Shown here: one piece after another, positions 1 to 43,862 of the stretch
Position numbering within the stretch: position 1 is the stretch's first letter
Layout: each line of letters begins with the position of its first letter
NCBI GenBank assembly: GCA_903938575.1
Contig: CAJADV010000048.1
Span: 1-51,874, forward strand
Direction: 5' to 3'
DNA length: 51,874 bases
Origin: an uncultured Gammaproteobacteria bacterium
Lineage (GTDB): Bacteria > Pseudomonadota > Gammaproteobacteria > Pseudomonadales > UBA5518
Program-made: the position numbers and the translations under genes
Notes under the pieces: model-generated
The model's input: the letters and a program-made list of their open reading frames with translations, nothing else
Databases searched by the model: none
What the model was told of the DNA's origin: nothing

Positions 1-2
1 CC

Positions 3-1088
3 GCCTATCGCGAATCGCGTTTCGCGGCAGCGACGGCGCTCTACCGCGATGGCGAAGCGCAGCTGAAAGCGCTGCGGGACGGCATTCCGGCGCGGCTCGA
101 GGCGCGCCTCGCGGCAGCTGATGCGGCCTTCGCGGCGGGAGATCAGGCGGCAGCACTTGCCGCCTTCGCTGAGGCCGCTGCCATCGAGCCCGCCAACGAG
201 CGCGCCCGCAACGGACTGGAGCGGGCAGCCCGCCTCGATCATCTGAAATCCCTGCTGGGTACCGGAGCGGCGCAGGAATCCAGTGGGCAATTCGGGCCGG
301 CGGCTGCGAGCTATCGCGAGGCGCTGGCGCTGGACGGCGCCTGGGAGCCGGCGCGCGCGGCGCTCGCTGCGGTGGAGGCAAAAATCAACGCCGAGCGCAG
401 CGCGGCGCGCGTGTCTGCTGGCTACAGCGCACTCGCGGCAGGACGCCTTGAGGAGGCCAGAGGCGAATTCCGGTCTGCGCTCGCGCTGGGCGCCGGCACC
501 GAAGCGCGCGAGGGGCTGCAGCAGGCAGAGTTCCAGCTCGGGCAGCAAGGCATCGGCGCCCTGCTGCAGGCCGCTACCGAGGCGCAGGGTGCAGAGGATT
601 GGAAGCGGGCACTCCAGAGCTACGAGGCCGCGCTCGCCATCGACGCATCCCTTGGCCCGGCGCGCTCGGGCCGGGAACTCGCGCGCACGCGGCTCGCCCT
701 CGACGAGGCCCTCACCCGGCTGGCCGCACAGCCCGCGAAACTCGCCAGCGACAACGCACGCAGCGCCGCCGACAGGCTGATCGCCGCGGCGGCATCCATT
801 CCCGATCCCGGTCCACGCCTGTCGGCCCAGATAGCAAAGGCCCGCAGCGCGCTTGTCTCGATGCGCACCGAAATCCCGGTGCAGATCCGCTCCGATGGCA
901 AGACCGACGTCATCGTGTTCCGCGTCGGCAGTCTGGGGAGCTTCGCTGAAAAGCAACTCTCGCTGCTGCCCGGCGACTATGTGGCGGTGGGACGGCGCGA
1001 TGGCTACCGCGACGTGCGGGTGGAGTTCGCGCTGCGACCCGGCGCGCCGCCGCCCCCGGTGATCGTGCAATGCGGGCAGCAAATCTGA
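3..1088 (+). CDS. TPR-like repeat protein with C-terminal PEGA-like domain (5' end outside window)
   Basis: Frame 3 is open from the window edge (AYRESRFAAATALYRDGEAQLKAL...) to TGA 1086-1088. It has repeated Ala-rich helical-hairpin motifs of TPR type (e.g. AAFAEAAAIEPANERARNGLERAA, ASYREALALDGAWEPARAAL, QSYEAALAIDASLGPA). The C-terminal LPGDYVAVGRRDGYRDVRVEF resembles the PEGA repeats of the next gene. The stop overlaps the next start. Confidence 0.6.
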   Translation, partial: AYRESRFAAATALYRDGEAQLKALRDGIPARLEARLAAADAAFAAGDQAAALAAFAEAAAIEPANERARNGLERAARLDHLKSLLGTGAAQESSGQFGPAAASYREALALDGAWEPARAALAAVEAKINAERSAARVSAGYSALAAGRLEEARGEFRSALALGAGTEAREGLQQAEFQLGQQGIGALLQAATEAQGAEDWKRALQSYEAALAIDASLGPARSGRELARTRLALDEALTRLAAQPAKLASDNARSAADRLIAAAASIPDPGPRLSAQIAKARSALVSMRTEIPVQIRSDGKTDVIVFRVGSLGSFAEKQLSLLPGDYVAVGRRDGYRDVRVEFALRPGAPPPPVIVQCGQQI

Positions 1089-3160
1089 TGCGGCAAAGCA
1101 GCCCCCCTGACGATGCCGGCGATCACGAGACCCCGATCGCGCCGTTCAGCTATTCGCCCCCCGAGCCCGGTCTGCGCCCCCCCACGCGCCGCCGTTTCGG
1201 CCGCCGTGAACTCAGGATCGCCCTGCCCTTGCTGGGCGCCGCACTGTTCGCCGCTTTCCTGCTGAGCGCGCAGGCCCTGCGCCTGCAGCCCACACCGGAC
1301 AATGCCCGGGTCGATATCGACGGCGGGTTGCAGCTGGTGCTCGGCGATACCGTCCTGTTGCGTCCGGGACCCTACGTGGCAAGGGCCACGGCCGAGGGTT
1401 ACTACCCGCTGGAACAGGCCTTCACGGTAAAAGACACGGGCAACGACCCCCTCTCGCTCGAGCTGCGCAAACTGCCCGGCAAGCTGCTGCTCGAAACCCG
1501 GCCCGTGGCCGCCACCGCCATGCTTGATGGCGCACCGCTCGGCACGAGCAACGGTCAGCCTCTCGAAATCCCTGCCGGCGCCCACCGGCTGCGCGTCACG
1601 GCCGAGCGCTATCTCCCCGTCGAACAGGACATCCGCATCGAGGGTCTCGGCAAAGAACAGTCACTGGCACTCACTCTGGCGCCGGGCTGGGGTTCTTACC
1701 GCCTCGAAACCCAACCCCCCGGCGCCAGCGTCGAACTCGATGGCGCCAGCATCGGGACCACACCCACGACCCTCGAACTCATGCAGGGCCCCCGACAGTT
1801 GCAGCTGCGGCTCGCGAACCACCGGGACGAGAGCCTCTTCGTCGAGGCCAAGGCCGGCGAATCACGCAGCCTCGAGCCGCTTGTGCTGGTCCGTGCCGAT
1901 GCGCGGCTGCGCCTCAGCAGCACGCCCACGGGCGCCAGCATCACGCTAGATGGGCAGTTCCGCGGGACCGCGCCGCTCGAGATCGCGCTGGAGTCGGGCC
2001 AAGCCCACGAACTGATTGCCTTCAAGGCGGGGCATGAAAGAGCTACACGCCGCTTCACCGCCGTGGCGGGAGAGCAGCAGATGAACCTCGCACTGCGCGC
2101 GCTGACGGGTGATATACGGATCGCTGTTACGCCCGCCGATGCCGGCATCTACGCCGGAGAACGACTGCTCGCCCGCGGCAGCGCGATGCTCACACTGGCC
2201 GCCGGCCCGCAGACGCTCACGCTGCGCCGCGCGGGCCACGCCGACGAAACGCTGCGCGTCACGCCGCGCCCGGGTTATCCGCAGGAGTTCTCCGTCAGGC
2301 TGAAAACGCTGGCAGAAAAGCAGCAAGCCGCCGTGCGCAAGAGCGTGCGCAGCGCCGCCGGGCAGGAGCTCGCACTGATCCAGCCGGGCAGCTTCCGCAT
2401 GGGATCATCGCGACGCGAATCCGGGCGGCGCGCCAACGAGGCCATGCGTGACATCCGCCTGACGCGGGCCTTCTACATCAGCCTCACCGAGGTGAGCAAC
2501 GCAGAGTTCAGGCAGTTCCGCTCCGGGCATTCCTCCGGCAACTTCAAGGGCAAAAGCCTGAACGGCGATACGCAGCCGGCCACCAACCTCTCGTGGACGG
2601 AGGCCGCGCTGTACTGCAACTGGCTGAGCGAACGCGAGGGCCTGAAACCCTTCTATCGCATCGCAGGTAAGGCCGTGGCGGGTTTCGAGCCGGGCTCGAC
2701 GGGCTATCGCTTGCCCACCGAGGCCGAGTGGGGCTGGGCAGCCACCGTGAAACCTGATGGCTCGCTACTCCGCTTCGCCTGGGGTGATGCCATGCCACCG
2801 CCACCCAAGGCGGGCAATTACGCAGACAAGAGCGGCGAGACCATCCTCGGCGAGATCATCACCGGATACGACGACGGCTTCCCCGTCTCGGCGCCCGTGC
2901 GCAGCTTTGCATCCGATCGGCGTGGCCTGTTCGACCTCGGCGGCAATGCGGCAGAATGGGTCCACGACCTCTACGAGGCCGCACCCGGTGACGCCGGCAC
3001 GGCGACCGATCCACTGGGTGCGGACATCGGTGAGTATCACGTCATTCGCGGCGCGAGCTGGCGCAACGGCGGGCTGACGGAGCTGCGGCTGGCATTCCGC
3101 GATTACGGCCTCGATGCGCGCGCCGATGTCGGATTCCGCATAGCGAGGTATCTCAAGTGA
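1070..3160 (+). CDS. membrane-anchored PEGA-repeat protein with C-terminal FGE-sulfatase (SUMF1-like) domain, probably non-catalytic
   Basis: 696-aa ORF. An alternative in-frame ATG at 1088 shares one base with the upstream TGA. One TM segment (ALPLLGAALFAAFLLSAQAL) is followed by about five PEGA-like repeats (e.g. LETQPPGASVELDGASIGTTP, LSSTPTGASITLDGQFRGTAP). The FGE-sulfatase motifs are FRMGS, LTEVSNAEF, GYRLPTEAEWGWAA, GNAAEWV and IRGASWRNG. The Cys pair of true FGE after RG(G/A)S is absent. Confidence 0.85.
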   Translation: MRAANLMRQSSPPDDAGDHETPIAPFSYSPPEPGLRPPTRRRFGRRELRIALPLLGAALFAAFLLSAQALRLQPTPDNARVDIDGGLQLVLGDTVLLRPGPYVARATAEGYYPLEQAFTVKDTGNDPLSLELRKLPGKLLLETRPVAATAMLDGAPLGTSNGQPLEIPAGAHRLRVTAERYLPVEQDIRIEGLGKEQSLALTLAPGWGSYRLETQPPGASVELDGASIGTTPTTLELMQGPRQLQLRLANHRDESLFVEAKAGESRSLEPLVLVRADARLRLSSTPTGASITLDGQFRGTAPLEIALESGQAHELIAFKAGHERATRRFTAVAGEQQMNLALRALTGDIRIAVTPADAGIYAGERLLARGSAMLTLAAGPQTLTLRRAGHADETLRVTPRPGYPQEFSVRLKTLAEKQQAAVRKSVRSAAGQELALIQPGSFRMGSSRRESGRRANEAMRDIRLTRAFYISLTEVSNAEFRQFRSGHSSGNFKGKSLNGDTQPATNLSWTEAALYCNWLSEREGLKPFYRIAGKAVAGFEPGSTGYRLPTEAEWGWAATVKPDGSLLRFAWGDAMPPPPKAGNYADKSGETILGEIITGYDDGFPVSAPVRSFASDRRGLFDLGGNAAEWVHDLYEAAPGDAGTATDPLGADIGEYHVIRGASWRNGGLTELRLAFRDYGLDARADVGFRIARYLK

Positions 3161-3426
3161 ACAGATCTGCGCTGACTGCGATGCTGCTGATGCTCGTTGC
3201 CGCTGCGGGCGCCGTGGAGCCGGCTGCCAACCCCGCAGGCGCCACGCCAACCACGCCGCCCAGCGCCCAGCGCGCGGCACCGGTCGTACCGCAGCAGCCC
3301 GTAGAGACAGCACCCCCGATAAGCGCGGCCGACGAGGCCGCGGCCACGCGCCGGGCCGGCGAGCGCTTCAAACCCTCGGAGAAAATCTCCGAGGATCTCT
3401 CCGTGTCGTTCCCCTCTGACATCTGA
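3157..3426 (+). CDS. small secreted Pro/Ala-rich protein with acidic C-terminus (hypothetical)
   Basis: The GTG start forms a GTGA overlap with the upstream stop, and GAGG lies 8 nt upstream. Signal-peptide-like N-terminus MNRSALTAMLLMLVAAAGA|VEP. Pro/Ala-rich middle region. Acidic tail SEKISEDLSVSFPSDI. No family recognised. Confidence 0.55.
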   Translation: MNRSALTAMLLMLVAAAGAVEPAANPAGATPTTPPSAQRAAPVVPQQPVETAPPISAADEAAATRRAGERFKPSEKISEDLSVSFPSDI

Positions 3427-3477
3427 ACCGGCGGCGGCCACCGTCGCAACTACACCACAAGGTCACGAGCACCGCCG

Positions 3478-4290
3478 ATGAAACGACTTCTGGCCTCCGA
3501 GTTCCTCTTCCAGATATTTGCCCTGCTGTTGTCGTTGATCGTGGTGCACACGGTCTATGTGGCGGTGGTGTGGCCGCGCGCCGAGGCATACCTGAAGGCG
3601 CAGGCCGAGCGCATCGCCTCCGGCGACACCACGGCACAGCCGCAATCGATGTTCGTGATCCTGAAAGACTACGAGCAGGAGTCCGAGGTGATTCTGTTTC
3701 TCTGGTGCATGGCCATCATGGGATTCAAGGGCGTGCAGCTGCGCCACGAGCGCGCGCTGTTCCGCGAACCACTGGTGCAGGTGCCCGCCGGCACCAGCAT
3801 TCTTCCCGAGGATGCGCGCGACTTCCTGCGTCCGATCGAGGCGCTGCCGCCGGAATCCCGCGAATGCCTCCTGCCACGCGCGCTGGTCGCCGGCCTGCAA
3901 CGCTTCGCCATCACGCACGGGATCCAGGACGCCTACGGCGCGATCCGCGAGGCCTGCGTCACCGAGGGCGAGCGCCTTGACTCCGAGCTTTCGATGATCC
4001 GCTACATCGCCTGGGCCATACCGGCAATCGGCTTCATCGGCACCGTGCGCGGCATCGGGATGGCGCTTAGCGAGGCCTACCGTGCGGTGGAGGGCGATAT
4101 TGCGGGCGTGACCGACGCACTGGGCGTGGCCTTCAACTCCACGCTCGTGGCGCTGCTGCTCAGCATCATCCTGATGTTCCTGATCCACCAGCTGCAACTG
4201 CAGCAGGAGCGCCTCACGCTGAGCGCGCAGTCTTTCTGCGAAGGACGCCTGCTGCCGCACCTGAAGGTGGCGCGGGAGCTGCGTTCATGA
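3478..4290 (+). CDS. MotA/TolQ/ExbB-family proton-channel protein
   Basis: 270 aa with N-terminal TM helices. The C-terminal signature IAWAIPAIGFIGTVRGIGMAL...ALGVAFNSTLVALLLSIILMFLI matches the conserved ExbB/TolQ/MotA channel region (PxxGLxGTVxG ... TxxGL). Confidence 0.85.
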   Translation: MKRLLASEFLFQIFALLLSLIVVHTVYVAVVWPRAEAYLKAQAERIASGDTTAQPQSMFVILKDYEQESEVILFLWCMAIMGFKGVQLRHERALFREPLVQVPAGTSILPEDARDFLRPIEALPPESRECLLPRALVAGLQRFAITHGIQDAYGAIREACVTEGERLDSELSMIRYIAWAIPAIGFIGTVRGIGMALSEAYRAVEGDIAGVTDALGVAFNSTLVALLLSIILMFLIHQLQLQQERLTLSAQSFCEGRLLPHLKVARELRS

Positions 4291-5633
4291 GCCTTGCGGT
4301 ACTCGACCTGAACGATGCCTCGCTCACGCTGGGCGACGTCGACGGCATCCGCGCCCGCAGCCCGGGATTCGCGCTGCTCGCAGCCGAAGCGCCGCTGCTG
4401 GGCGAGGCAGCGCGAAGCAAGGCACGCATCGACCCGCGCAGCACCAACAGCCAGTTCTGGCTGCGCCTGGGTACCGAGCCGCTGCATCACGCGCCGGCCC
4501 ATACGCGCCACAACGCGGATCTCGGCTATCGCCACCTGCTGCACGTGCATGAACTGGCAGGACAGCCCGCCGAACTGTTGCTGGCGGTGCCGGGAAGTTT
4601 CTCGCGCGAGCAACTGGCCATGCTGCTCGGGATCGCCGAACGCTGCCCCTTCCGCGCCTGCGGGTTGGTCGACAGCGCCATCGCCGCCGCCAGCACCGAG
4701 TCTCTGTCCGGCGCTGCATTGCACCTCGAGTTGCAACTGCACCAGGCCGTGCTGACACAGATCGACCACGCCGACGGCATGCTCACGCGCGGAGCCGTGC
4801 GCGCGCTGCCGGGCGCCGGACTGGCGGCGCTGCAGGATCGCTGGGCGAGGCGCGCGGCCGAGTCCTTCATCCGGCAGTCGCGCTTCGACCCGCTCCACGC
4901 GGCGGCCACCGAGCAGCAACTCCATGACCGCCTGCCGGGCTGGCTCGAGGCGCTCGCCTCACAGGACAGCGTAGAGGCCGAACTCCAGCAGCAGAGCAAT
5001 CGCTACCGGGCAACGCTGCGCGCGGGCGAGATGCTGGACGCGGTGCAGTCGATCTACGCCGATCTGCTCGAAGCCCTCGCCCGCGAGGGCACGGACGCCA
5101 CGCTGCTGCTCGGTGCCCGCGCCGCGGGGCTGCCGCGTTTTGCCGAGCGTGTGCCCGAGGCAAGAACACTGGCAGACAATGCCGCCATCCGCGGCGCCCT
5201 GCGCCACGCCTCACTGGTTCGCAGCGAGGAGCGCGCGCTGCGCTTCGTCACGCGCTTGCCTGCCGAGCTAGCAGCGGCAAGCCTCCGCGTGCCCACACCT
5301 GTCAAGCCGGCGGCGACGCGCACACGCGCAAGCGCGCCCACGCACCTGGTCTCAGGCAGCAGCGCACTGCGTCTGGACAGCGGCACGCTGTATCTGCTCG
5401 GCAACGACGAGGAGGGCTGGGCGCTTTCGCGAAGTACCTCCGCCGCCAGCCGCTGCCGCCTGGAGCAGGACGGCACCGACTGGTACGCCTGCGCAGCGCC
5501 GGGGGTGTTGCTGCGAATCGACGGACTGCCAGCACCGGGACGCGTGCGGGTGGGCGCGGGTACGCACCTCGGCATCGAGAGCGAGGCACTGGTGTTCGTG
5601 ACCGAGGTCGTGGCCGGCGGCAATGGCGCGTAG
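4287..5633 (+). CDS. Hsp70/actin-fold-like protein with degenerate nucleotide-binding motifs and FHA-like C-terminal region
   Basis: ATGA overlap with the upstream stop. The N-terminus aligns by eye to DnaK. [13 protein letters not shown] aligns with [36 protein letters not shown] aligns with [65 protein letters not shown] aligns with [35 protein letters not shown]. The phosphate-2 motif DLGGGTFD is replaced by ELQLHQAV. The C-terminal ~90 aa (LYLLGNDE...SRCRLEQDG...LRIDGLP...[11 protein letters not shown]) is FHA-like but lacks canonical GR/SxxH. No TM segment. Confidence 0.55.
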   Translation: [448 protein letters not shown]

Positions 5634-6711
5634 ACGCGATTTCACGATCTTCAGCCTGTCCTTCCTGGACGTGATGTCCTGTGGCTTCGGCGCGACCATC
5701 CTGCTCTACCTGATCCTCGATCACCGGCAGGAAATGGACACCCGCCAAAAGAGCAGCGCACTGCGCGGCGAGGTCGCGTTCCTCGAGCGCGAGGTGAAAG
5801 AAGGCACCGTGGACCTGGCGGAACTGCGGAACACGCTGTCGATGGTCGATGACTCCCTCGCCGAGGCGAACGGGCGCTCCCGCCAGATTCTCGCGCAGAT
5901 CGCCGAGCGCCGCGACGAGACCGCCGAGGGAAAGGACGACACCCTCGCCCAGCGCGAGCATGTGAACCGCCTGAAGACCGATCTCAAGCAACTCGAGGAA
6001 AACAACGAACGCCTGCGCGCCGAGGGCGAGAAACAGCGCGGGCAGGATGTACGGCAGTTCCAGGGCGACGGCGACCGCCAGTACCTTACCGGGCTGAAGC
6101 TCGGCGGACGGCGCATCCTGGTGCTGCTAGACCGCTCGGCAAGCATGCTCGACTACAGCCTGGTGAACGTGATCCGCCTGCGCAACATGCCCGCACCGGT
6201 GCAGCTGCGCTCGGCCAAGTGGCAACGCGCGGTCGCCACGGTCGACTGGCTGAGCACCCAGTTGCCCGAGGGCAGCCAATACCAGATCTACAGCTTCAAC
6301 ACGCGCGCCGAACCGGTGGTGGAAGGCAGCGCAGGCAAATGGCTGCAAGTCGCCGACCGCGAGCAGCTGAACGGAGCTATCGCGAGGCTGCAGCAACTGG
6401 TGCCGGCCGAGGGCACGAGTCTCGCGAACGCCTTCGAGGTGGCATCAAAGCTCTCACCTGCACCGGACAACATCTACCTGATCACCGACGGCCTGCCCAC
6501 ACAAGGCGCCACGGGACCCAGCGGCCCCAAGGTGAGCGGACGTGACCGCCAACGCCTGTTCAATCAGGCCCTGGAGAAGCTGCCCAAAGGCATACCCGTG
6601 AACGTCATCCTGGCGCCCATGGAGGGCGATCCGATGGCCGCCTCGGCGCTCTGGCAGCTGGCGATATCGACGCGGGGTGCATTCCTCGCGCCGGCACGGG
6701 ACTGGCCATGA
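5623..6711 (+). CDS. ExbD/TolR-like TM anchor - coiled coil - vWA domain protein (paralog 1)
   Basis: The N-terminus MARRRDFTIFSLSFLDVMSCGFGATILL resembles the ExbD/TolR TM helix (E. coli ExbD INVTPFIDVMLVLLIIF) and keeps the Asp (codon 5668-5670). Residues ~45-140 are heptad-like and charged. The vWA domain has a MIDAS DxSxS motif, LLDRSASM (6130-6144), followed by EGTSL and LITDG. Confidence 0.8.
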   Translation: MARRRDFTIFSLSFLDVMSCGFGATILLYLILDHRQEMDTRQKSSALRGEVAFLEREVKEGTVDLAELRNTLSMVDDSLAEANGRSRQILAQIAERRDETAEGKDDTLAQREHVNRLKTDLKQLEENNERLRAEGEKQRGQDVRQFQGDGDRQYLTGLKLGGRRILVLLDRSASMLDYSLVNVIRLRNMPAPVQLRSAKWQRAVATVDWLSTQLPEGSQYQIYSFNTRAEPVVEGSAGKWLQVADREQLNGAIARLQQLVPAEGTSLANAFEVASKLSPAPDNIYLITDGLPTQGATGPSGPKVSGRDRQRLFNQALEKLPKGIPVNVILAPMEGDPMAASALWQLAISTRGAFLAPARDWP

Positions 6712-7706
6712 GCCGCCGTCGTCGTGCACCGGAGGAGTTCAGCCTCTCCTTCCTGGACGTGATCTGCTGCGGCTTCGGGGCAATCATCCTGCTGCTGATC
6801 ATCACGCGGGTCTCCGCCCCGGTCGTACTCGAGGAGAGCACGCGCGATCTGGAGTCGCGGATCGCGGCTCTGCAGGAGCAGCTGTTCCGGCTCCGCGGCG
6901 AGTCGACGGTACTGAACCGCGACCTGACGGCACGACAAGAGCAGCTCTCCGAGGTGATCGACAAGGTCGCCCGCCTGGAGCGCGAACTCTCGTCGATCAA
7001 AGGCGAGTTCGCCGCCAGCGATGCCGACTCCGAGCTGAACTCACGGCTGGTGGGGCAACTCGAGAAAGCCAGGCAGCGCCTCAGCGACGAGATGAAACGT
7101 CTGCTCGGCGCCCAGGGCGGACGTCGCAACGACGCCATCGGTGGCATACCAGTGGACAGCGAATACGTGATTTTCATCATCGACACCTCGGGGAGCATGT
7201 TCAATTACGCATGGCCGCGCGCGCAGCAGGAGATGATCAACATTCTCGACCTTTACCCGAAGGTGAAAGGGATACAGGTGCTCGATGACGAGGGCGGTTA
7301 TATGTTCTCGAGCTATCGCGGGCAGTGGATTCCCGACACGCCCGCGCGGCGCAAGGCGATCATCCAGCGTTTTGCCAGCTGGAACCCCTACTCCAACAGC
7401 AGCCCGGTCGAAGGCATCGTGTTCGCGATCCGGAGCTTCTACGAGCCCGGACGCAAGATCAGCCTCTACGTGCTGGGCGACGAGTTCACCGGCAACTCGA
7501 TAGCGCAGGTGATCGACGTGGTGGACAAGATCAACCGCGAGGGCCCACAGGGCGAGCGGCTGGTGCGGATCCACGCCGTGGGCTTCCCGACCCAGTTTGG
7601 CAATCCGGCCCAGTACCAGATAACCGGCATCCGCTTTGCCACCCTGATGCGCGATCTGTCGTGGAAAAACAACGGCACCTTCGTGGGCCTGAACGACTAC
7701 CGCTGA
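6708..7706 (+). CDS. ExbD/TolR-like TM anchor - coiled coil - vWA domain protein (paralog 2)
   Basis: ATGA overlap with the upstream stop. The N-terminus EEFSLSFLDVICCGFGAIILLLII is nearly identical in pattern to paralog 1, with the Asp codon at 6756-6758. A coiled-coil-like segment follows. The vWA MIDAS motif is IIDTSGSM (7182-7196). Confidence 0.8.
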   Translation: MSRRRRAPEEFSLSFLDVICCGFGAIILLLIITRVSAPVVLEESTRDLESRIAALQEQLFRLRGESTVLNRDLTARQEQLSEVIDKVARLERELSSIKGEFAASDADSELNSRLVGQLEKARQRLSDEMKRLLGAQGGRRNDAIGGIPVDSEYVIFIIDTSGSMFNYAWPRAQQEMINILDLYPKVKGIQVLDDEGGYMFSSYRGQWIPDTPARRKAIIQRFASWNPYSNSSPVEGIVFAIRSFYEPGRKISLYVLGDEFTGNSIAQVIDVVDKINREGPQGERLVRIHAVGFPTQFGNPAQYQITGIRFATLMRDLSWKNNGTFVGLNDYR

Positions 7707-7775
7707 GCACGGGCTTGGATACCCGGTGGCATTGACCCTATGATCCGCCTGCCCCTTGTCCCCGAGCGCGAACGC

Positions 7776-8396
7776 ATGCGCACACGACTCCTGCTGTTGC
7801 TTGTCTGCGTATTGCTGCCGGCCTGCGGGCCGCAGGTCGTGCAGATGAAAGCACTGAACGAATTTCCCCGCCCGCTGGTCGATCCACTGCCGATACGCGT
7901 GGGTTTGCACATCCCGCCCGAGTTCGCCGCCTACACCTACCACGAAAAGCGCCCGGGACGGGCGGGCCAGGAGTGGACCATCAGCATCGGGCCGCCGCAG
8001 GCACAGGTGTTTCAGGAAATGCTGGGCGCACTGTTCAGCGGCGTCGATGTGCTGGATTCGCCAACGGCGGGCGGCAATGGTCTTGCCGCCGTGATCGTGC
8101 CCGGCGTGGCGGAATTCCAGTTCGCGCTGCCCGCCGACACCAAGGCCAAGGTCTTCGAGATCTGGGTCAAATACGATCTTGGAATCCGCACCGCCAAGGG
8201 CGAGGAGATCGGTCACTGGCAGTTCACCGCCTATGGCAAGACGCCCACCGCGTTCCTGAAATCCGACGAGGAGGCGATCCGCGCGGCCACCATTGTTGCG
8301 CTGCGCGATGCGGGTGCCTCGCTGGTGAGCGGGCTGGAGCGCGACCCCAGGCTGCGCGAGTGGCTGGGCGTGGAGCAGCCCGCCGACAAGCCCTGA
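7776..8396 (+). CDS. putative lipoprotein (hypothetical)
   Basis: The ORF is open from ATG 7740. ATG 7776 gives MRTRLLLLLVCVLLPAC|G, which has a signal peptide and a lipobox-like LPAC. No family recognised. It is the last gene of the + strand operon. Confidence 0.55.
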   Translation: MRTRLLLLLVCVLLPACGPQVVQMKALNEFPRPLVDPLPIRVGLHIPPEFAAYTYHEKRPGRAGQEWTISIGPPQAQVFQEMLGALFSGVDVLDSPTAGGNGLAAVIVPGVAEFQFALPADTKAKVFEIWVKYDLGIRTAKGEEIGHWQFTAYGKTPTAFLKSDEEAIRAATIVALRDAGASLVSGLERDPRLREWLGVEQPADKP

Positions 8397-8397
8397 G

Positions 8398-10083
8398 TCA
8401 GCGACCTGGCGTGGCGGCTCGCCGCAGATCTGCCAGCAGCGCCTCGGGATTGGGGGCTCTTCCCAAAAAATCCCGCAACACCGTATCAGCGCTTCTCTCC
8501 CTGCCGAAGCGCAATAAACGCTCGGAGATCCACGCGTAGTAGCCAGCATCCGGGCCGCTCGCCGACCCTCGCAGCTCGCGAGCGCGGGCGCGCATATCCG
8601 CCGCCAGCACCGCGCCGAGCCCGTAATTGATCATGTAGCCGGGACTGTCCACGAGCTGCCCTCGCCGTGCCCACCATGACAGTCCCGGATGCGGGCGCAC
8701 GTGCAGGTAGCGCGCGGCGATGTCGTTCCAGACGCGGTCAGGATCTGCAGCAGGATCGGCGTAGACGCGCAGCTCGAAAAGACTCCAGGCCACATCCAGC
8801 ACGATGCCGGCATAGCGGCTGCGCAGGTTGTCCGCCGCCGATGCCCGGGCGCCGAGCCAGCGTTGCTGCCAGGGCTGCTCGTAGACCTCCTGGGAAAAAA
8901 TCTCTGCGATCGCCTCGGTGAACGCATTGCTGTCGGGCCAGTCGGCAAAGGCCGGCGACGTCCGGATCGCAGCGATGTGGATGGCGTGCCCGGTCTCGTG
9001 GAGTATCTCGTTCAGGTTGCCGATGCCGCCCGTCGCATAGCCGGCGATGACCCAGGGCTCCCCCGTCGACCAGCTCCCGTCCGCACGCCGCCGTGGTCGG
9101 GCACCGAAATCCGTGAAGGCGACCGCCGTCTTGCCCGGGCGGCGCTCGATGTCGTAGTGGATATTGAGTGCCGCGATATCGGCACCCAGGCTGGCGTGGA
9201 AGGCGTCGTTGATTTCCCGCAGCCGCCCGAGGGGCACACGAGCGCCAAGTTGCCGCTCCACCGGGTTGCCCGCATATTCGTAGTCCCACGGTTCGAGATC
9301 GTCGCCCGCCGTGAGCTCGCTCCACGCCTGCAAAACAGCCACCAGCCAGGGTTCCAGTTGGGCCTCATCCAGACCGAGCGCGCGCAGATTGTCAGCAACA
9401 GGCGAACCGCCCGCGCGCCACTCGGCTGCGACCATCGGCTGCATGCGGCGAAACGGACTTTGCTCGCCGCCGTCCCCGTTGATGGTCCGGAACATCGGCT
9501 GCATTGCCTCGAGCAAGTGCCTGCGCCGCGCCGGATCAGGCGAACGGGCCATATCGGCAAGGAGCGTCAGACGGTCGGTGACGCGGCCGTCAATCGCGAT
9601 GGCGTTGGCTGCCAGGCCGTAGCAGGCGTAAGTCCACGACCGCAACGCCGCGAGCGGGGCATCCCGGGCAGGCGCTTTTTCGCAACCGGATACGGACGCG
9701 CCATCTGCCGACGGCGCCGGCGGGAGATCCATCTCCCCGCGCGCGTAGGAGCTGCTCATGGCCTCTGCAGGAGCGCCTGCGGAAACGGGCAGCAGGGCGG
9801 CAACGGCGCTCTGCAACGCAGGGTAAGCAGTGCGCTCAGGCGTGGCGTCCTCAGCGCGCGCTTCGCGCGTGCGGATGCGATCGCCAAGCTCGCGCAGCTC
9901 GAGGAAACTTGACTCGACGGAAGGATCTCGAGCTGATGAAGACGCCGGATGCGCCTCGGCTGCAGCCAGGGCGGCGTGCGACAGGACCGCTGCGGCAAGG
10001 ACGAAGCTGAGAATCAGCGCCGCGCACGGCGGCCCGGAGGCGAACCCGGGAATCGTACAGCGCGGCTCAGTGGGCCCCGGCAC
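8398..10083 (-). CDS. secreted zinc metallopeptidase (HExxH, gluzincin-like)
   Basis: 561-aa ORF. Hydrophobic signal-like N-terminus (CAALILSFVLAAAVLSHAALAAA). HExxH motif within NEILHETGHAIHIA (HExGHxxH pattern, as in M2/M3-type peptidases). The exact family is not determined. Confidence 0.7.
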   Translation of the reverse strand: MPGPTEPRCTIPGFASGPPCAALILSFVLAAAVLSHAALAAAEAHPASSSARDPSVESSFLELRELGDRIRTREARAEDATPERTAYPALQSAVAALLPVSAGAPAEAMSSSYARGEMDLPPAPSADGASVSGCEKAPARDAPLAALRSWTYACYGLAANAIAIDGRVTDRLTLLADMARSPDPARRRHLLEAMQPMFRTINGDGGEQSPFRRMQPMVAAEWRAGGSPVADNLRALGLDEAQLEPWLVAVLQAWSELTAGDDLEPWDYEYAGNPVERQLGARVPLGRLREINDAFHASLGADIAALNIHYDIERRPGKTAVAFTDFGARPRRRADGSWSTGEPWVIAGYATGGIGNLNEILHETGHAIHIAAIRTSPAFADWPDSNAFTEAIAEIFSQEVYEQPWQQRWLGARASAADNLRSRYAGIVLDVAWSLFELRVYADPAADPDRVWNDIAARYLHVRPHPGLSWWARRGQLVDSPGYMINYGLGAVLAADMRARARELRGSASGPDAGYYAWISERLLRFGRERSADTVLRDFLGRAPNPEALLADLRRAATPGR

Positions 10084-37057: not shown

Positions 37058-37126
37058 CAACCGGGTAGGTATGATCTCGGCGCGCGCTGCGACCTACCTC
37101 TGCAGCAACGCCCAAAGGAGATGCCC

Positions 37127-37963
37127 ATGTCGAGCCTGGTCGATGAGATCCGCGCTCAGCTGATCGAAGCCATCAAGAACAATCGCATCGTGCTGCCGAC
37201 GCTCCCCGAGGTGGCGCTGCGCATACGCGATGCCGCCGAGGATCCACGCTCAGACATCGCCTCCTTCGCCCGTGAACTCGGCTTCGATGCGGCGCTGTCG
37301 GCCCGAGTGATCCGGGTGGCAAACAGCCCGCTGATGCGCGGCAATTCGCCAGTCACGGACGTCAAGGGTGCCGCGGCCCGACTCGGCATCCAGTATTCCT
37401 GCAACCTGGCGGTCGGCCTTGCCATGGAACAGATGTTCCAGGCCACCTCGGATGCCATCGACGAGCGCATGCGCCAGATCTGGGCCCACAGCACCGAGGT
37501 AGCCGGTATCAGCGCCGTGCTCGCGCGAACCTACACCCGCCTGAAGCCCGACCAGGTGATGCTCGCCGGCCTGGTGCACCGGATCGGCGCGCTGCCGATC
37601 CTCCGTTTCGCCGAAGAAGACCGCAACCTGCTGAAAGATCTTGATGTCCTCGATGAACTCATCGAGGCGCTGCACGGCGAGATCGGCAAACTCATCCTCG
37701 ACACCTGGGCCTTCCCCCCGGAGATCGCGACAGTCCCGTTGTCCTACCTCGATTTCGCGCGCAAGCCGGCTGCCGTGGATATCACCGACATCGTGATGGT
37801 GGCCAACCTGCAGAGCTACATGGGCTCCTCGCATCCGCTGGCCACGCTCGACTGGACAACCGTCAGCGCCTTCGGTCGCATCGGCCTCGATCCGAACGTG
37901 AGTTCGATGGAGGCCGAGGATCTGAGCGAAGCCATGGCCGCGAGCATCGCCGCGCTTCAGTAG
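37127..37963 (+). CDS. HDOD domain-containing protein
   Basis: [18 protein letters not shown]...[11 protein letters not shown]...GLVHRIG matches the HDOD pattern. ATG 37127 has AAGGAG 6 nt upstream (alternative ATG at 37121). Confidence 0.82.
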
Positions 37964-38667
37964 GCCTCTGAACCCCAGTCGACGGGGTCGATGCCGTTAT
38001 CTGCCAGGTAGCGGTTGGCACTGGAGAAGTGCCCGTTGCCGATGAAGCCCCGGTACGCGGAAAGCGGCGAGGGATGCGGTGAAACCAGTACCAGATGCCG
38101 GCTCCTGTCGACGATTCGACCCTTGCGTTGGGCATAACTGCCCCACAGCATGAACACCAGGTGCTCGCACCGGGCACTCAGCACCTCCACCACGCGATCG
38201 GTGAAGGTCTCCCAGCCTTTGCCTTGATGCGAGGCCGCATGGGCCTGCTCCACCGTGAGCACACTGTTCAGTAGCAGCACGCCCTGCTTCGCCCAGCGAT
38301 CAAGGCAACCGTGCGCCGGTCGCGGCAGGCCGAGATCGCGCTCGAGCTCGGCAAGGATGTTGACCAGCGAAGGCGGCGGTGCAACGCCCCGCGGCACGGA
38401 AAAACACAAGCCATGCGCCTGTCCGGGGCCGTGATAGGGATCCTGCCCGAGGATCACCACTTTCACGGCGGCGAAGGGCGTGCTGCGGAAGGCCGCGAAC
38501 CAGTTAGCCGCCGCGGGGTAGATCTCCACCCCGCGGCGCTTTTCGGCGATCAGGAAGGCCCGCAACTGCTGCATGTAAGGCTGCTCGAACTCGGACCCGA
38601 GCTCCGCGAGCCAGCCGGGTTCGAGGTCGATGCGCCGACCCGGATCAGCGCTCGTCGGGGACGCCAT
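37957..38667 (-). CDS. ung: uracil-DNA glycosylase
   Basis: [31 protein letters not shown] and HPSPLSA motifs. ATG 38667. Confidence 0.95.
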
Positions 38668-39916
38668 GACGCCGCTGGTATGCGCTGAACAGTTCGCGCT
38701 CTCGCGCCTGGAACTCGGCATCGCCCGCCTCGTACCGATGGACCCCGAACTTTCCCTTGGGCTTGGCGGCGATATAGGCGCACATGCGCTCCTCGGCCAC
38801 TGCCCCGAGGGGCATCGAGAGCCGGGCGTAAAGCTCGCGGACAGCGACGAGAGGATCGTCCATCAGCTGCTGGTAGCGCGAATCAACGACACGATCGGCC
38901 GGCACGATGCCGAGATCACGCTGGCGCATGACGTTCTCGAGGCGCGAAGCCGTGGCTGCCCCCATGATCAGATCCTCGAAGGCCGAGGAATCGAAAGCCT
39001 TGTCGCTGCGCATCCAGTAGAGGCAACCGAGCAGGTTGGTGGCCGAGGCCATGCACTTCAGCGGGTCGCGGTGCGTCTGCACCACGCGGGCATCCGGATA
39101 GGTGGCGAACAGCGTGGGCAGGTGGCCCAAGTGATTCGGCGCCTTGAGCAGCCAGCGCGTCGCGTCACCCGCGCGCCATTGCAGCAGCTTCAGGACGCGG
39201 CGGTGATACCGGTAGGCGAGACTCCACTCATGGGTAAAGAGCCAGGCGTCGTAGGACGGCGTCTGCTGCAGCGCGGGAAAGTGTTCGCTCAGAAAGGTAT
39301 TGGCCATGATCATGCCGCACTCCGAGGGAATGCGTCCGCCCATCTCATGCATCGCGGCATAGGCCGGCACCACGCGGGCCCACTGCGTTACCAGATGATC
39401 GGCGCGTTGAATGCGTGCCTCGATGTCCTCGGTGCTGGCGAGCGCTGGCGGCGGGCAGGAGAACAGGAGCATCCAGGTCTCGGGAATCGTGAAGCCCGGA
39501 TCCTGCGCCAGCAGCTCGAAAAGAATAGAGGTGCCTGAGCGCGGCAATCCGGCAATGAACAACGGCTCGCGGATCTCCTCCTCGTCGATCTCGGGATGGC
39601 GCCGGTACCAGTCCTCGATATGCAGTCGGTTCTGCAGGAACACCAGCAGTTCGCTGCGGCACATGATGCGGCCGGTGAGGTTGAGTTCTGCCTCGGCCTC
39701 GAGGGCCTCGACCAGTACCCGGAACGGCGCTTCCCAATCGGGATCGCCGAAGTCCTCGAGACCTGTGGCGCGACAGGCGGCGTCAATCAGGCTCGCGGCA
39801 TCGAGGGGCACGACGGCGCTGATATCCATGCCGCGCCCTTCGGCATTCAACCGCTCCGCCCAGTCTGCGCGTGGCGGTGGCGTCCAGCGATCCCGGCGAT
39901 CGTCGCTCGCGCTCAT
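38645..39916 (-). CDS. sulfotransferase-family protein
   Basis: PAPS 5'-phosphosulfate-binding loop [14 protein letters not shown]. About 420 aa. The pattern matches bacterial sulfotransferase-domain proteins. Confidence 0.75.
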
Positions 39917-40409: not shown

Positions 40410-41306
40410 TCAGCGGTGTATGACCTGTTCGGCGAAGCGCTGCATCGCTGCACGCTTGCTCTCTCGCAGGGCGGGATTGGCGCCCGGATCAAACCAGGGC
40501 GCCGTGATGAAAGGATTGGGCATCCACGGGCTCATGATCATCAAGCCCGTGACACCGGCCTCCTCGAGTTCGGCGATGGTCGCTGGCTCATGTGCTTCAG
40601 TGAGCGCGATATTCACGGCAAGCCCCTCGGCGCCAAGGCCTGCAGCCAAGCGCTCACGCCGCAGCGTCTCGACCATCGGCACGGCGGCAGCGCGATCGAG
40701 CGGCAACCCGAGCCAACCGTCATTGCGGGCGGCGCGACGCAACGCGGGCGCTGAGGCCCCACCGCACCACACCGGCACCGTAGACGGCGGTGGCGGGCAC
40801 ATGATGCCCTCGTCGAAGCCAAAGAACTCGCCGCGATGCGAGACCGGCTGGCCACTCCAGAGCCGACGCATGACGACCAGCAGTTCATCGAGGCGACGGC
40901 CACGGCTGCCGAAGTCGACGCCCATCAACTCGTATTCCTCGCGCAACCAACCCGCTGCCACGCCGAGCACGATGCGTCCGTTGGAGAGCACGCTCGCGGT
41001 GGACACGGCCTTGGCCAGCGTGATCGGGTCGCGCATCGCAGCGATGCAGATATTGGACGCGAGCCGCAGACGGGAGGTGACCGCACCCATGGCGGCGAGC
41101 GTGACCCAGGGGTCGGGCCAGGGCGTGTCTGACGGCCACCACATGGCGCCGTCCTCCGTGTAGGGGTAGCGGCTGTCGATCCGGGTGGGCATCAGCAGGT
41201 GGTCAGCTACCGTGATGCCATCGAAGCCTGCTTCCTCGGCCATGCGCGCGACATCGAGCAACTGGTCCTGCTCGGGAATCGTGGTGATGGAAAGCCAGTA
41301 CTCCAT
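40410..41306 (-). CDS. luciferase-like monooxygenase (LLM) class, probable F420-dependent oxidoreductase
   Basis: AEEAGFDGITVADHLL..., ...LGVAAGW... and a ~300-aa TIM-barrel pattern like Rv2161c-type F420 enzymes. It lies directly downstream of fbiC. ATG 41306 has a GGAGGA RBS. Confidence 0.75.
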   Translation of the reverse strand: MEYWLSITTIPEQDQLLDVARMAEEAGFDGITVADHLLMPTRIDSRYPYTEDGAMWWPSDTPWPDPWVTLAAMGAVTSRLRLASNICIAAMRDPITLAKAVSTASVLSNGRIVLGVAAGWLREEYELMGVDFGSRGRRLDELLVVMRRLWSGQPVSHRGEFFGFDEGIMCPPPPSTVPVWCGGASAPALRRAARNDGWLGLPLDRAAAVPMVETLRRERLAAGLGAEGLAVNIALTEAHEPATIAELEEAGVTGLMIMSPWMPNPFITAPWFDPGANPALRESKRAAMQRFAEQVIHR

Positions 41307-41335
41307 GAACGATCCTCCAGGTTTTTCCGGGGTGC

Positions 41336-43831: not shown

Positions 43832-43862
43832 TGCATCTCTCCTGGCCAAGGCCGCCGCCGAT

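Follow-up and report, generated by a model that had tools for sequence, protein, structure and literature searches.

The window analysed here, a stretch of 51,874 nucleotides from an uncultured Gammaproteobacteria bacterium, begins with eight closely spaced genes on the + strand (3..8396) that form the downstream portion of a widely conserved 9–12-gene operon, truncated by the window edge. We infer that the products of this operon function as a motor, and the reading we favor, with a probability of about 0.58, is a PMF-driven MotA/ExbB-type motor of the 5:2 type in which two vWA proteins, g6 and g7, replace ExbD/TolR within a trans-envelope complex. The genes in the window are as follows:

g1, 3..1088, + strand: 3' part of the gene, 361 of about 509 codons; the 5' end lies beyond the window edge
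g2, 1070..3160, + strand: PEGA array with FGE-like domain; another possible ATG at 1088 would give a TGATG overlap with g1
g3, 3157..3426, + strand: predicted small secreted protein, 89 aa
g4, 3478..4290, + strand: predicted MotA/ExbB/TolQ-family channel subunit
g5, 4287..5633, + strand: cytoplasmic protein, Hsp70-NBD-like and FHA-like
g6, 5623..6711, + strand: TM/stalk/vWA protein
g7, 6708..7706, + strand: TM/stalk/vWA protein, paralogue of g6
g8, 7740..8396, + strand: lipoprotein with an LptE/PqiC/DUF330-type fold

All ORFs are present where the initial annotation had put them, and its description of eight same-strand frames is confirmed. The junctions read from the sequence are GTGA at g2/g3 and ATGA at both g4/g5 and g6/g7, g5 and g6 overlap by 11 nt, and the remaining g3/g4 and g7/g8 junctions are gaps of 51 and 33 nt. 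GC3 is 0.79–0.86 for all eight ORFs in a genome of 66% GC, and thus g1–g8 are considered genuine coding frames. A convergent gene terminates 2 nt beyond the g8 stop, so the operon ends with g8.

Further genes upstream of the window had been anticipated, and in relatives these are u1, which encodes a TPR protein ending in a TonB C-terminal domain, and the lipoprotein genes u2 and u3, giving the full order u1-u2-u3-g1-g2-g3-g4-g5-g6-g7-g8(-g9), where g9 is a further lipoprotein found 3' of g8 in many relatives. The initial annotation had also reported no TonB or TolA, which holds inside the window; however, u1, with which the full operon starts, carries a TonB C-terminal domain in many relatives (E 1e-11 against solved TonB C-terminal domains). 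About 160 loci of Gammaproteobacteria and Acidobacteriota, including cultured Microbulbifer, share this gene order. They were collected as two samples: 85 loci from genomes or metagenomes with g5 as seed, and 80 metagenome loci seeded on the g6/g7 TM motif alone. In the g5-seeded sample all 11 genes occur in order in 18 loci, and a 9-gene core is found in nearly all sufficiently long loci. Seeding on the TM motif recovered g5 in 61/64, g4 in 50/51, g2 in 34/35 (counted over the motif-seeded loci with enough upstream DNA), g1 in 27/28, u2 in 21/22 and u3 in 19/22 cases.

The core of the proposed motor consists of g4, g6 and g7. By its match to Pfam MotA_ExbB (PF01618, 50.6 bits, cut-off 22.9), g4 is a predicted MotA/ExbB/TolQ-family channel subunit, as had been proposed, and presumably the pentameric "A" part of the motor. 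Its matches to TolQ, ExbB and PomA are weak, and solved stators are only remotely similar (E 0.02–0.2). Two pore-lining threonines, T189 (in GTVRG) and T222 (in FNST), fall on the TM3/TM4 threonine positions when g4 is aligned with PomA, and both motifs are at least 90% conserved among 78 orthologues. The two vWA proteins are paralogues (BLASTP E 1e-12, reciprocal in jackhmmer) that always adjoin each other and always come after g4. An N-in single-pass protein, g6 has Asp16 in its TM (codon 5668–5670), then about 110 residues of helical stalk and, in the periplasm, a vWA domain whose MIDAS is complete (D170, S172, S174, T265, D289); it matches Pfam VWA_2 (36.9 bits, 6e-9) as well as coiled-coil families, and has more than 5700 database relatives. 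Correspondingly, g7 has TM Asp17 (codon 6756–6758) and a helical stalk; its vWA domain, which is divergent, retains DxSxS (D159, S161, S163) and D258, and the metal-binding motif (MIDAS) is intact in both heads. Both stalks span about 100–110 residues, of which 67% are E/K/R/Q/L/D/A, with 0–1 Pro. The TM Asp lies inside the motif fslSFLDvisCGFGA and is invariant in the 77 g6 and 71 g7 orthologues in which conservation was measured. The label "ExbD-like" given earlier to these TM segments is based on this motif only: the invariant Asp aligns in register with TolR D23 and ExbD D25 in hhalign, but homology is not supported statistically (E only 0.05–0.1), g6 and g7 do not match Pfam ExbD, and a profile search of the PDB did not find ExbD, TolR or MotB. 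No ExbD, TolR or MotB gene is present in the operon, and g6 and g7 are presumed to be the two "B" subunits, as a heterodimer.

A similar assembly has been predicted in Mol Biol Evol 2025 (PMC12204202), where computational work with AF3 gave pentamers of a TolQ-like protein together with pairs of vWA proteins whose "trans-pore helix" bears an Asp. That family has a TolQ-like gene and heterologous pairs of Asp-TM vWA proteins with no tolR/exbD, and its description, with Idiomarina as reference, matches the g4/g6/g7 core; the other genes of the operon are not discussed there. The motor core has thus already been predicted, and the full parts list goes beyond that study. The novelty claimed in the initial annotation stands in so far as no characterised or named system was matched, PADLOC giving only a weak hit to ZorA and NCBIfam a hit to GldK far below its cut-off, but it does not extend to the core.

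The remaining components bear mainly on what such a motor would do and how it would be controlled. The first of them, g1, is a periplasmic TPR protein anchored in the inner membrane, and its C-terminal domain is a PEGA/CarboxypepD_reg-like beta-sandwich, although the initial assignment as TPR plus PEGA-like is borne out only in part, as all TPR matches fall below the Pfam threshold and PEGA/CarboxypepD_reg matches are weak, appearing in 5–10 of 18 orthologues. The complete orthologue in locus L006 has 509 aa with a TM at 38–56. In g5, a linker joins an Hsp70-type nucleotide-binding-domain fold (about residues 1–325) to an FHA-like beta-sandwich (about 350–440). Pfam itself gives no match, and the earlier Hsp70-like/FHA-like assignment is upheld by an AF2 model (pLDDT 92.8) that Foldseek matches to Hsp70 nucleotide-binding domains (E 1e-15, TM 0.69) and by FHA hits at the C-terminus (E 0.002–0.009). 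A residue census found the glycines of the phosphate-binding loops replaced, and thus g5 may not hydrolyse ATP. It has relatives in 1247 clusters at E<=1e-30; in the few natural variants that lack it g6 directly follows g4, and therefore g5 is not essential to the core.

The covariation of these two genes is a new finding, as is the kinase domain itself: in 17/60 loci (28%) g1 has a cytoplasmic Ser/Thr kinase domain at its N-terminus (for example, Pkinase E 6e-38 in locus L038), and canonical FHA motifs are found in g5 of 15/17 kinase loci vs. 1/43 non-kinase loci. Such a relay invites comparison with TagQRST-PpkA-Fha1, the pathway by which threonine phosphorylation triggers type VI secretion (T6SS), and with it a different reading of the operon, as an envelope-perturbation sensor whose periplasmic FGE-like, vWA, TPR and lipoprotein parts respond to envelope damage or to a ligand and relay the signal into the cell through kinase and FHA, the MotA-like channel being a sensor of PMF or membrane state, or a gated leak. 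The domain vocabulary agrees, since PpkA, a TM Ser/Thr kinase, carries a vWA domain in the periplasm (PMC3224232), and TagR is a periplasmic COG1262 (FGE-type) protein, TagQ an outer-membrane lipoprotein and Fha1 an FHA protein (PMC13584744). We regard the sensor as unlikely: about 70% of the loci, the window lineage included, have no kinase and a degenerate FHA-like domain yet retain every other gene, the operon has no conserved response regulator, transcription factor or effector, the window has no T6SS genes, and the strictly conserved Asp and Thr are the residues that a working ion-driven motor needs.

In g2, a 47-aa cytoplasmic tail and one TM (48–66) precede about five repeats of the PEGA type, and the C-terminal domain has the FGE-sulfatase fold. 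Pfam matches to PEGA (120 bits, 2.7e-35, in four stretches), CarboxypepD_reg and FGE-sulfatase (124 bits, 1.4e-35) agree with the periplasmic array and FGE-like fold first proposed. The catalytic Cys pair of FGE is absent, C516 being the sole Cys, and the domain is predicted from its residues to be non-catalytic. In Bacteroidota, GldLM works with the FGE-fold proteins GldK and GldJ, and GldK is the top NCBIfam match of g2. The parallel with GldK/PorK drawn in the initial annotation holds only at the level of fold; the GldK match scores 85 bits where the cut-off is 350, and the domain is equally far from human FGE, PvdO, TvpA and PorK. To our knowledge the host taxa, Halieaceae, Microbulbifer, Steroidobacter and Acidobacteriota, are not known to glide. 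Surface adhesion or gliding-type motility, with the motor driving adhesin-like vWA heads or outer-membrane lipoproteins, is accordingly improbable, even though the pairing of a single MotA-like protein with two distinct Asp-TM proteins is reminiscent of AglR/AglQ/AglS and CglB, the vWA lipoprotein of Myxococcus AglRQS-Glt, is a vWA adhesin (PMC9946355). Gliding is also the subject of speculation in PMC12204202, though only for its other vWA family (TolA/TonB-like transducers) and not for the Asp-TM pairs. Searches for GldL/M/N, Glt and SprB-like genes gave none, the operon encodes no outer-membrane beta-barrel or secretin, and the vWA domains are anchored to the inner membrane rather than exposed at the surface.

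There is likewise little probability that g4 is an ordinary ExbB/TolQ paralogue with its ExbD encoded elsewhere, and that g6 and g7 are membrane-anchored vWA proteins resembling BatA/BatB, mere operon companions whose TM Asp serves another use. Separate ExbD genes do exist elsewhere in such genomes (e.g., L086) and the TM segments lack significant sequence homology to ExbD or TolR, but g4 stays together with g6/g7 throughout the loci and becomes their immediate neighbor when g5 is missing, no other explanation readily accounts for a charged Asp that never varies in either of the paralogous TM helices and occupies the ExbD/TolR position, and g4 belongs to a divergent branch (24 bits against the 221-bit cut-off of the TolQ equivalog model). 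Anti-phage defense by a Zorya-type system, with a MotA-like motor that detects breaches of the envelope, is very improbable: Zorya also couples a MotA homologue to a non-flagellar partner and g4 weakly matches ZorA (20.6 bits), but ZorB, ZorC, ZorD, a nuclease or other effector and any defense signature were not found, the operon is flanked by housekeeping genes, and its synteny is stable across families with a distribution that follows lineages.

In the motor that we favor, a g6/g7 heterodimer would sit inside the g4 pentamer (5:1:1) in place of ExbD/TolR, with the two TM Asp residues as proton-binding sites, and proton flow would rotate or pull the dimer. This motion would travel along the stalk, which as a single continuous helix would measure about 15 nm, to vWA heads close to the peptidoglycan and outer membrane, where the MIDAS sites may hold an acidic ligand on a partner protein. 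Candidate ligands are the conserved acidic C-terminal motif of the u2 lipoprotein and that of g3; the latter, by prediction a secreted protein with a low-complexity middle, has a hydrophobic N-terminal segment and no family match, and keeps its C-terminal motif F-P-S-E...D..VSFP-DI in 69 orthologues. Alternatively, the ligand may be the FGE-like head of g2, which the PEGA stalk may lift to a height similar to that of the vWA heads. In the cytoplasm g5 would act as hub or gate. In kinase-type lineages its canonical FHA would bind phosphothreonine, and phosphorylation probably switches the motor there because the g1 kinase co-occurs with this FHA; in the window lineage both have been lost, and control must therefore differ.

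Most likely the machine does mechanical work of the kind performed by Tol-Pal or TonB, acting on the outer envelope in, for example, tethering, remodelling or the response to perturbation; transport is a less likely output. The periplasmic and outer-membrane scaffold would be made of g1, the TPR protein u1 and the lipoproteins. Among the latter g8, with the lipobox LPAC (Cys29), is probably located in the outer membrane; its AF2 model (pLDDT 91.4) is matched by Foldseek to 2iqi (E 2.5e-6), PqiC and LptE, and its orthologues include those of cultured Microbulbifer.

The operon under study opens the window (GC approximately 66%) with eight plus-strand open reading frames (ORFs) at 3..8396, and the eight-gene anatomy drawn in the initial annotation proved accurate once the products were assigned to domains through family and fold matches.

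ORFs of the operon
3..1088, plus strand: g1, TPR-like protein, truncated 5' by the window boundary
1070..3160, plus strand: g2, ORF for a PEGA/FGE-like protein
3157..3426, plus strand: g3, ORF for a small signal-peptide protein
3478..4290, plus strand: g4, ORF for the channel-type protein
4287..5633, plus strand: g5, ORF for a predicted Hsp70-fold protein
5623..6711, plus strand: g6, ORF for a vWA protein
6708..7706, plus strand: g7, ORF for a vWA protein paralogous to g6
7740..8396, plus strand: g8, ORF for a lipoprotein

Start and stop codons overlap as GTGA at g2/g3, as ATGA at g4/g5 and g6/g7 and possibly as TGATG at g1/g2, g5 and g6 share 11 nt, and the run contains two short intergenic gaps of 51 and 33 nt; GC3 of the eight ORFs is 0.79–0.86. 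A convergent ORF (8398-10083, minus strand, 561 aa) stops 2 nt past the g8 stop codon and is kept only in the three nearest relatives, thus the operon is taken to end at g8 and this ORF was rejected as a part of the system. It bears a metalloprotease-like HETGH (HExxH) motif and has no Pfam match. At the opposite end, further genes had been thought possible beyond the window edge, and relatives indeed carry three, u1, u2 and u3, on the 5' side of g1. Extra upstream genes were seen in the first three g5 neighbourhoods, those of a metagenome contig (71% identical) and of MAGs from Halioglobus and Acidobacteria, and in L006, the closest relative with a g5 93% identical, u1 (541 aa), u2 (396-aa lipoprotein), u3 (391-aa lipoprotein) and g1 (509 aa) are followed by g2 to g8.

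The system is real and conserved. Scanned against a single genome for each species, a 12-sequence g5 alignment placed g5 relatives in 152 species, 80 of which were examined, and a g5 profile collected 1247 clusters (50% identity) at E<=1e-30 among 1.84 billion representatives. The complete order u1-u2-u3-g1-g2-g3-g4-g5-g6-g7-g8 was found in 18 loci of an 85-locus jackhmmer census, and the core from u2 to g7 in essentially all census loci of sufficient length. The census extends over Gammaproteobacteria and Acidobacteriota, and one further record bears the title 'delta proteobacterium'. Carriers among the Pseudomonadales in the GTDB sense include Halieaceae, Spongiibacteraceae and Microbulbifer, and further gammaproteobacterial carriers are Steroidobacteraceae, Nevskiales, Lysobacterales, Wenzhouxiangellaceae and Thioalkalivibrio. 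The cultured Microbulbifer thermotolerans carries the operon in full on its complete genome. To control for the bias of seeding on g5, metagenome contigs were also scanned by the transmembrane (TM) motif [SA]FLDx[IM][STC]CG[FL] alone, and at least 582 loci matched. Among the best 80 of these, restricted to those with enough upstream DNA, g5 was present in 61 of 64 loci, g4 in 50 of 51, g2 in 34 of 35, g1 in 27 of 28, u2 in 21 of 22 and u3 in 19 of 22. Gene order is kept in the census and in the motif-seeded loci alike, and the neighbourhood described in the initial annotation holds well beyond this one sequence. Four loci have no g5 and g4 abuts g6 (L162:9082-12087, L166:1869-4758, L163 and L164). 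A different locus, L160, retains g3 to g9 and over 7.5 kb shows no gene of the upstream set. A twelfth conserved gene, g9, codes for a lipoprotein and follows g8 in 24 loci of the 85-locus census (L001-L085) and, among the 80 loci seeded on the motif (L087-L166), in 33; it occurs in this place in many Gammaproteobacteria and is missing from the window's lineage.

The two carrier MAGs that stand nearest to the window among public records, L006 (CAMAXE010000004.1) and L016 (CAZSYV010000004.1), are titled 'Klebsiella pneumoniae' and 'uncultured Klebsiella sp.'; both have this operon at 66% GC, with g5 93% and 47% identical respectively, and the titles look like mislabels because the two group with freshwater Pseudomonadales/Gammaproteobacteria MAGs. 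In many Pseudomonadales loci (L028, L040, L043, L050, L065 and L079-L084) the operon is followed, at a distance of 2-6 kb, by the iron-sulfur cluster assembly genes sufBCDS and by a gene for a small methyltransferase. They were rejected as parts of the system and are read as lineage synteny, the stability of which argues against a mobile island.

The centre of the operon is formed by g4, g6 and g7. The assignment of g4 to the MotA/ExbB channels was upheld (PF01618, 50.6 bits against a cut-off of 22.9), and PF01618 is also recorded for the g4 orthologues of L001, L003, L005 and L086. Judging from profile scores, g4 is related only remotely to any named subfamily: the TolQ equivalog model gives 24 bits against a cut-off of 221, and among solved chains PomA gives E 0.02 and TolQ E 0.1. 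Its last two TM helices bear the motifs GTVRG (T189) and FNST (T222), at least 90% conserved among 78 orthologues, and the two Thr align with the TM3/TM4 pore Thr positions of PomA. The products of g6 and g7, whose genes are obligatorily linked, are paralogous from the N-terminus through the MIDAS site (BLASTP 1e-12, 27% identity). Each starts with a basic tail, followed by a TM helix (consensus fslSFLDvisCGFGA, with no His) in which the Asp is invariant (g6 D16, n=77 orthologues; g7 D17, n=71), by a periplasmic, Pro-poor stalk of ~100-110 residues that is 67% E/K/R/Q/L/D/A and matches coiled-coil families, and by a vWA domain (VWA_2, 6e-9 for g6), also periplasmic, in which DxSxS and the distal residues of the MIDAS are conserved for both proteins. 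The operon holds no ExbD-family gene (PF02472), g6 and g7 themselves have no PF02472 match, and their TM profile found no ExbD, TolR or MotB among its PDB matches. In hhalign the Asp falls in register with D23 of E. coli TolR (E 0.1) and D25 of E. coli ExbD (E 0.05), values that are not significant. Both proteins have the B-subunit trait of the 5:2 class, being single-pass and N-in with the Asp near the cytoplasmic end of the helix. To our knowledge MotA/ExbB/TolQ pentamers work solely with a dimer of single-pass, Asp-bearing partners, and it is highly probable that g6 and g7 are the B subunits of g4.

Full-text literature searches returned one relevant paper, a prediction of TolQ-like pentamers with paired vWA proteins (PMC12204202; Mol Biol Evol 2025;42:msaf138). 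The vWA genes reported there occur mostly in heterologous pairs, their products have a TolR/ExbD-like trans-pore helix with a conserved Asp and no TonB/TolA SHLS motif, and AF3 models place the Asp within a Thr ring; function is given as unknown and no phenotypes are reported. That family and the present operon have in common a tolQ-like gene tightly linked with TM-tethered vWA genes, the lack of tolR/exbD in the cluster and occurrence in Proteobacteria. All the features of the description are found in g4, g6 and g7, the family being matched by description, not by sequence. The taxa differ in part, with Verrucomicrobia in the paper as against Gammaproteobacteria and Acidobacteriota in our samples, and its reference organism, Idiomarina loihiensis, belongs to a genus absent among the matches listed in our searches for relatives. 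The text makes no mention of PEGA, FGE/sulfatase, Hsp70/DnaK, FHA, TPR/kinase or TonB-CTD proteins or of lipoproteins; thus the literature searched appears to hold no description of the operon of 9-12 genes, of its Hsp70-fold/FHA hub, lipoproteins and TonB-CTD protein, or of the covariation between kinase and FHA. Only the three-gene core appears to have been noticed previously. The statement in the initial annotation that no characterised system of this composition was known stands for the operon as a whole and needs correction for the core, the idea of which was published in 2025.

Around the core lies a set of envelope proteins. The product of g2 has a cytoplasmic tail, one TM helix (48-66), and then PEGA repeats (2.7e-35, four stretches), a CarboxypepD_reg match and an FGE-sulfatase domain (1.4e-35). 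Catalytic FGEs have a Cys pair in the C-terminal segment. The sole Cys of g2 is C516 and none lies in the segment matching the catalytic Cys-pair region, so the domain is read, from residues only, as a non-catalytic FGE fold; it is equally close to human FGE (5e-13), PvdO, TvpA and PorK (1.4e-10). The g8 lipoprotein (lipobox LPAC) is modelled with an LptE/PqiC/DUF330 lipoprotein fold (pLDDT 91.4). The small g3 protein ends in a conserved acidic motif, and the C-terminus of u2 is likewise conserved and acidic. TPR matches in g1 stay below threshold; its C-terminal domain gives weak PEGA/CarboxypepD_reg matches in 5-10 of 18 orthologues, and its profile does not match a PEGA repeat of g2. Profiles of u3 and g9 found no match in the PDB, and both were rejected as paralogues of g8, the alignments being limited to signal peptides. 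The g9 lipoprotein (~220 aa; for example L003:14011-14670 and L086:10685-11344) has four conserved Cys beyond that of the lipobox, and an M48 peptidase gene comes after it in Halioglobus and Microbulbifer.

The absence of TonB pointed out in the initial annotation is correct for the window and fails for the full operon of the relatives, in which u1 ends in a TonB C-terminal domain (CTD) of ~85 residues (profile against solved TonB CTDs, 1e-11). The N-terminus of u1 is signal-peptide-like and cleavable-looking, TPR follows and there is no SHLS anchor, and u1 was for this reason rejected as a canonical TonB/TolA transducer. The likeness to ExbB-ExbD-TonB and TolQ-TolR-TolA, the 5:2 PMF motors that pull outer-membrane partners, is broader than this domain, and includes a PF01618 channel with two pore Thr, a single-pass N-in partner with the TM Asp at the equivalent position, and an envelope-spanning logic. 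The periplasmic ExbD domain is, however, lacking in g6 and g7, and the presumed force-transmitting stalk and head continue directly from the Asp helix, whereas the known motors have for this a separate TonB/TolA that binds laterally. Genes for TolB, Pal or a TonB-dependent receptor are not linked to the operon.

On the cytoplasmic side stands g5, whose relatives are all annotated as 'hypothetical proteins' and which itself has no Pfam match and gave no record in an exact-sequence look-up. In an AlphaFold model built with 42 homologues (pLDDT 92.8) the first ~325 residues resemble Hsp70 nucleotide-binding domains (Foldseek E 1e-15, TM 0.69 on target), and the beta-sandwich at its C-terminus corresponds to FHA domains (E 0.002-0.009); the Pfam FHA family is matched by some g5 relatives. 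When g5 is aligned with DnaK by hhalign, conservation is seen at the acidic positions E/D7, D129 and D/E148, whereas the phosphate loops read L(E/D)LND and (D/E)LQLH(Q/R) where Hsp70 has DLGTT and DLGGGT. With the Gly-rich loops replaced, ATP hydrolysis by g5 seems doubtful, and an Hsp70 chaperone was rejected on these loops, on the lack of an SBD and on the FHA-like C-terminus. R199, D201, P202, E209 and Q210 are invariant in 84 of 84 sequences.

The FHA part of g5 varies with g1. At 17 of 60 loci the g1 orthologue has an N-terminal Hanks-type Ser/Thr kinase domain (L038, L035, L041, L044, L046, L053, L064, L066, L067, L069, L076, L078, L085 and others; Pkinase 6e-38 for L038 g1, 3989-6349), and such fusions of kinase, TM and TPR occur in Steroidobacteraceae, some Acidobacteriota and other Gammaproteobacteria. 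Canonical FHA motifs of g5 (SRxH, STYGS, GD) are found at 15 of the 17 kinase loci and at 1 of the 43 kinase-free loci, counts that are uncorrected for phylogeny, and through this covariation the FHA domain of g5 is linked with the cytoplasmic end of g1. The window's lineage has lost both the kinase and the canonical FHA, its FHA motifs being degenerate and the g1 tail of L006 only ~37 aa. A short conserved motif, I-x-P-x-x-[FYL], is common to the cytoplasmic tails of g1 and g2 and may serve as a docking peptide. ORF listings of three kinase-type loci (L041, L053 and L056) offered no candidate for a phosphatase partner.

Taken together, we favour the reading, with a probability of about 0.58, that g1 to g8 are part of a PMF motor-driven trans-envelope machine, and the main inference of the initial annotation, a further output module for this motor class, is reasonable. 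In such a machine a g6/g7 heterodimer would be the Asp-bearing partner dimer of g4, and proton flow would rotate or pull it. The ~100-residue stalk, if a continuous helix at 1.5 Å per residue, would reach ~15 nm and put the vWA heads near the peptidoglycan and the outer membrane, and the five PEGA repeats of g2 may bring its FGE-like head to a similar height. The MIDAS sites could bind an acidic ligand, candidates being the acidic C-termini of g3 and u2, or g2 itself. The TPR proteins g1 and u1 and the lipoproteins u2, u3, g8 and g9 would form a scaffold, and g5 a cytoplasmic hub under phosphothreonine control where g1 is a kinase. The chance is about even for the fuller proposal of a widespread, vertically inherited machine of 9-12 proteins that represents an undescribed output class of 5:2 motors, with stalks and MIDAS adhesion heads on the proton-binding B subunits and an Hsp70-fold/FHA hub that couples the motor to Ser/Thr-kinase signalling in kinase-type loci, roughly one third of those sampled.

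Several other explanations have to be weighed against the motor. A sensing relay akin to the threonine-phosphorylation pathway of the T6SS in Pseudomonas aeruginosa (TagQRST-PpkA-PppA-Fha1) would draw on the same set of domain types, namely a TM Ser/Thr kinase, FHA, periplasmic vWA, a periplasmic FGE-type protein and an outer-membrane lipoprotein (PMC3224232; PMC13584744): PpkA has a periplasmic vWA domain (PMC3224232), and TagR belongs to COG1262 and TagQ is an outer-membrane lipoprotein, beside Fha1 (PMC13584744). In the operon, however, the kinase sits on a TPR protein and the vWA domains on Asp-TM proteins, a MotA-type channel is present and no T6SS genes lie nearby. The relay is weakened because most lineages, the window's included, have no kinase and yet keep everything else, and we hold it to be improbable, though the best placed of the alternatives.

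A gliding or adhesion apparatus is quite unlikely. It finds a parallel in AglR-AglQ-AglS of the Myxococcus Agl-Glt complex, where one MotA/TolQ-like protein also has two different TolR-like partners and where TPR proteins, outer-membrane lipoproteins and the vWA protein CglB are further participants; that vWA domain sits on an outer-membrane lipoprotein, whereas those of the operon are anchored in the inner membrane as parts of the presumed B subunits, and neither Glt nor Gld homologues were detected in the operon. GldKLMN/PorKLMN share with it the succession of an FGE-fold protein, motor A and an elongated, periplasmic, dimeric B subunit, and the parallel drawn earlier with GldK/PorK stands at the level of the fold, apparently non-catalytic in g2 as well. 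It does not extend further: g2 reaches 85 bits against a cut-off of 350 with the GldK equivalog model (TIGR03525), is TM-anchored with PEGA repeats and has no lipobox as opposed to the lipoproteins GldK/PorK, GldL/PorL are not PF01618 members as g4 is, and GldL, GldM and GldN had no matches, so that the operon was rejected as a GldKLMN system. Equally unlikely is that g4 and g6/g7 are unrelated proteins that simply share an operon, a view at odds with the invariance of the Asp and with the strictly kept adjacency. A Zorya-like defence function can hardly be entertained, since although ZorAB likewise employ a MotA-family pentamer outside flagella and uptake, Zorya has a long ZorA tail, a peptidoglycan-binding domain in ZorB and ZorC/D or ZorE effectors, while the operon has no such tail and no effectors, stands among chromosomal housekeeping genes, matches ZorA only in the MotA core of g4 (20.6 bits) and shows no ZorB/C/D/E traits. 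PADLOC on all eight proteins returned nothing beyond this weak ZorA match and coiled-coil noise, and the vWA/FGS conflict systems (Kaur et al., 2020; PMC7159879) were set aside for having no MotA or ExbB and a different architecture.

We know of no route other than MotA/ExbB-type motors by which inner-membrane energy reaches the Gram-negative outer envelope, and the new outputs of these motors, flagella, TonB uptake, Tol-Pal, gliding/T9SS and Zorya, each opened a field. If the motor reading is true, the operon would contribute a further design, one where force is transduced by the proton-binding subunit itself, which has a metal-dependent adhesion domain at its end. Its partners form a defined set: the PEGA/FGE-like stalk protein, TPR proteins, the TonB-CTD protein, three or four lipoproteins and the Hsp70-fold/FHA hub. 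The kinase/FHA covariation provides a concrete regulatory hypothesis. Specialists of envelope motors now have a defined parts list and hosts in culture, and since M. thermotolerans is a marine and genetically approachable organism, the function is directly testable.

The remaining window is ordinary chromosome, with RelA/SpoT, Era, LepA, LepB, ferrochelatase, an aminoacyl-tRNA synthetase, NadB-like and F420-type genes, and scanning for tRNA genes and Rfam families found nothing anywhere in the window. Near its middle a HDOD-domain protein (37121-37963, plus strand) and a Sulfotransfer_3 family protein (38645-39916, minus strand) are encoded with no linkage to the operon. The F420-type genes form a coenzyme F420-type biosynthesis cluster at 40410-46290 on the minus strand.

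F420-type cluster
40410-41348, minus strand: luciferase-like monooxygenase
41336-43948, minus strand: double radical-SAM FbiC/CofGH-like protein, 870 aa
44552-45496, minus strand: CofD
45493-46290, minus strand: ORF with no assignment

The chromosome in which this cluster lies is apparently gammaproteobacterial.
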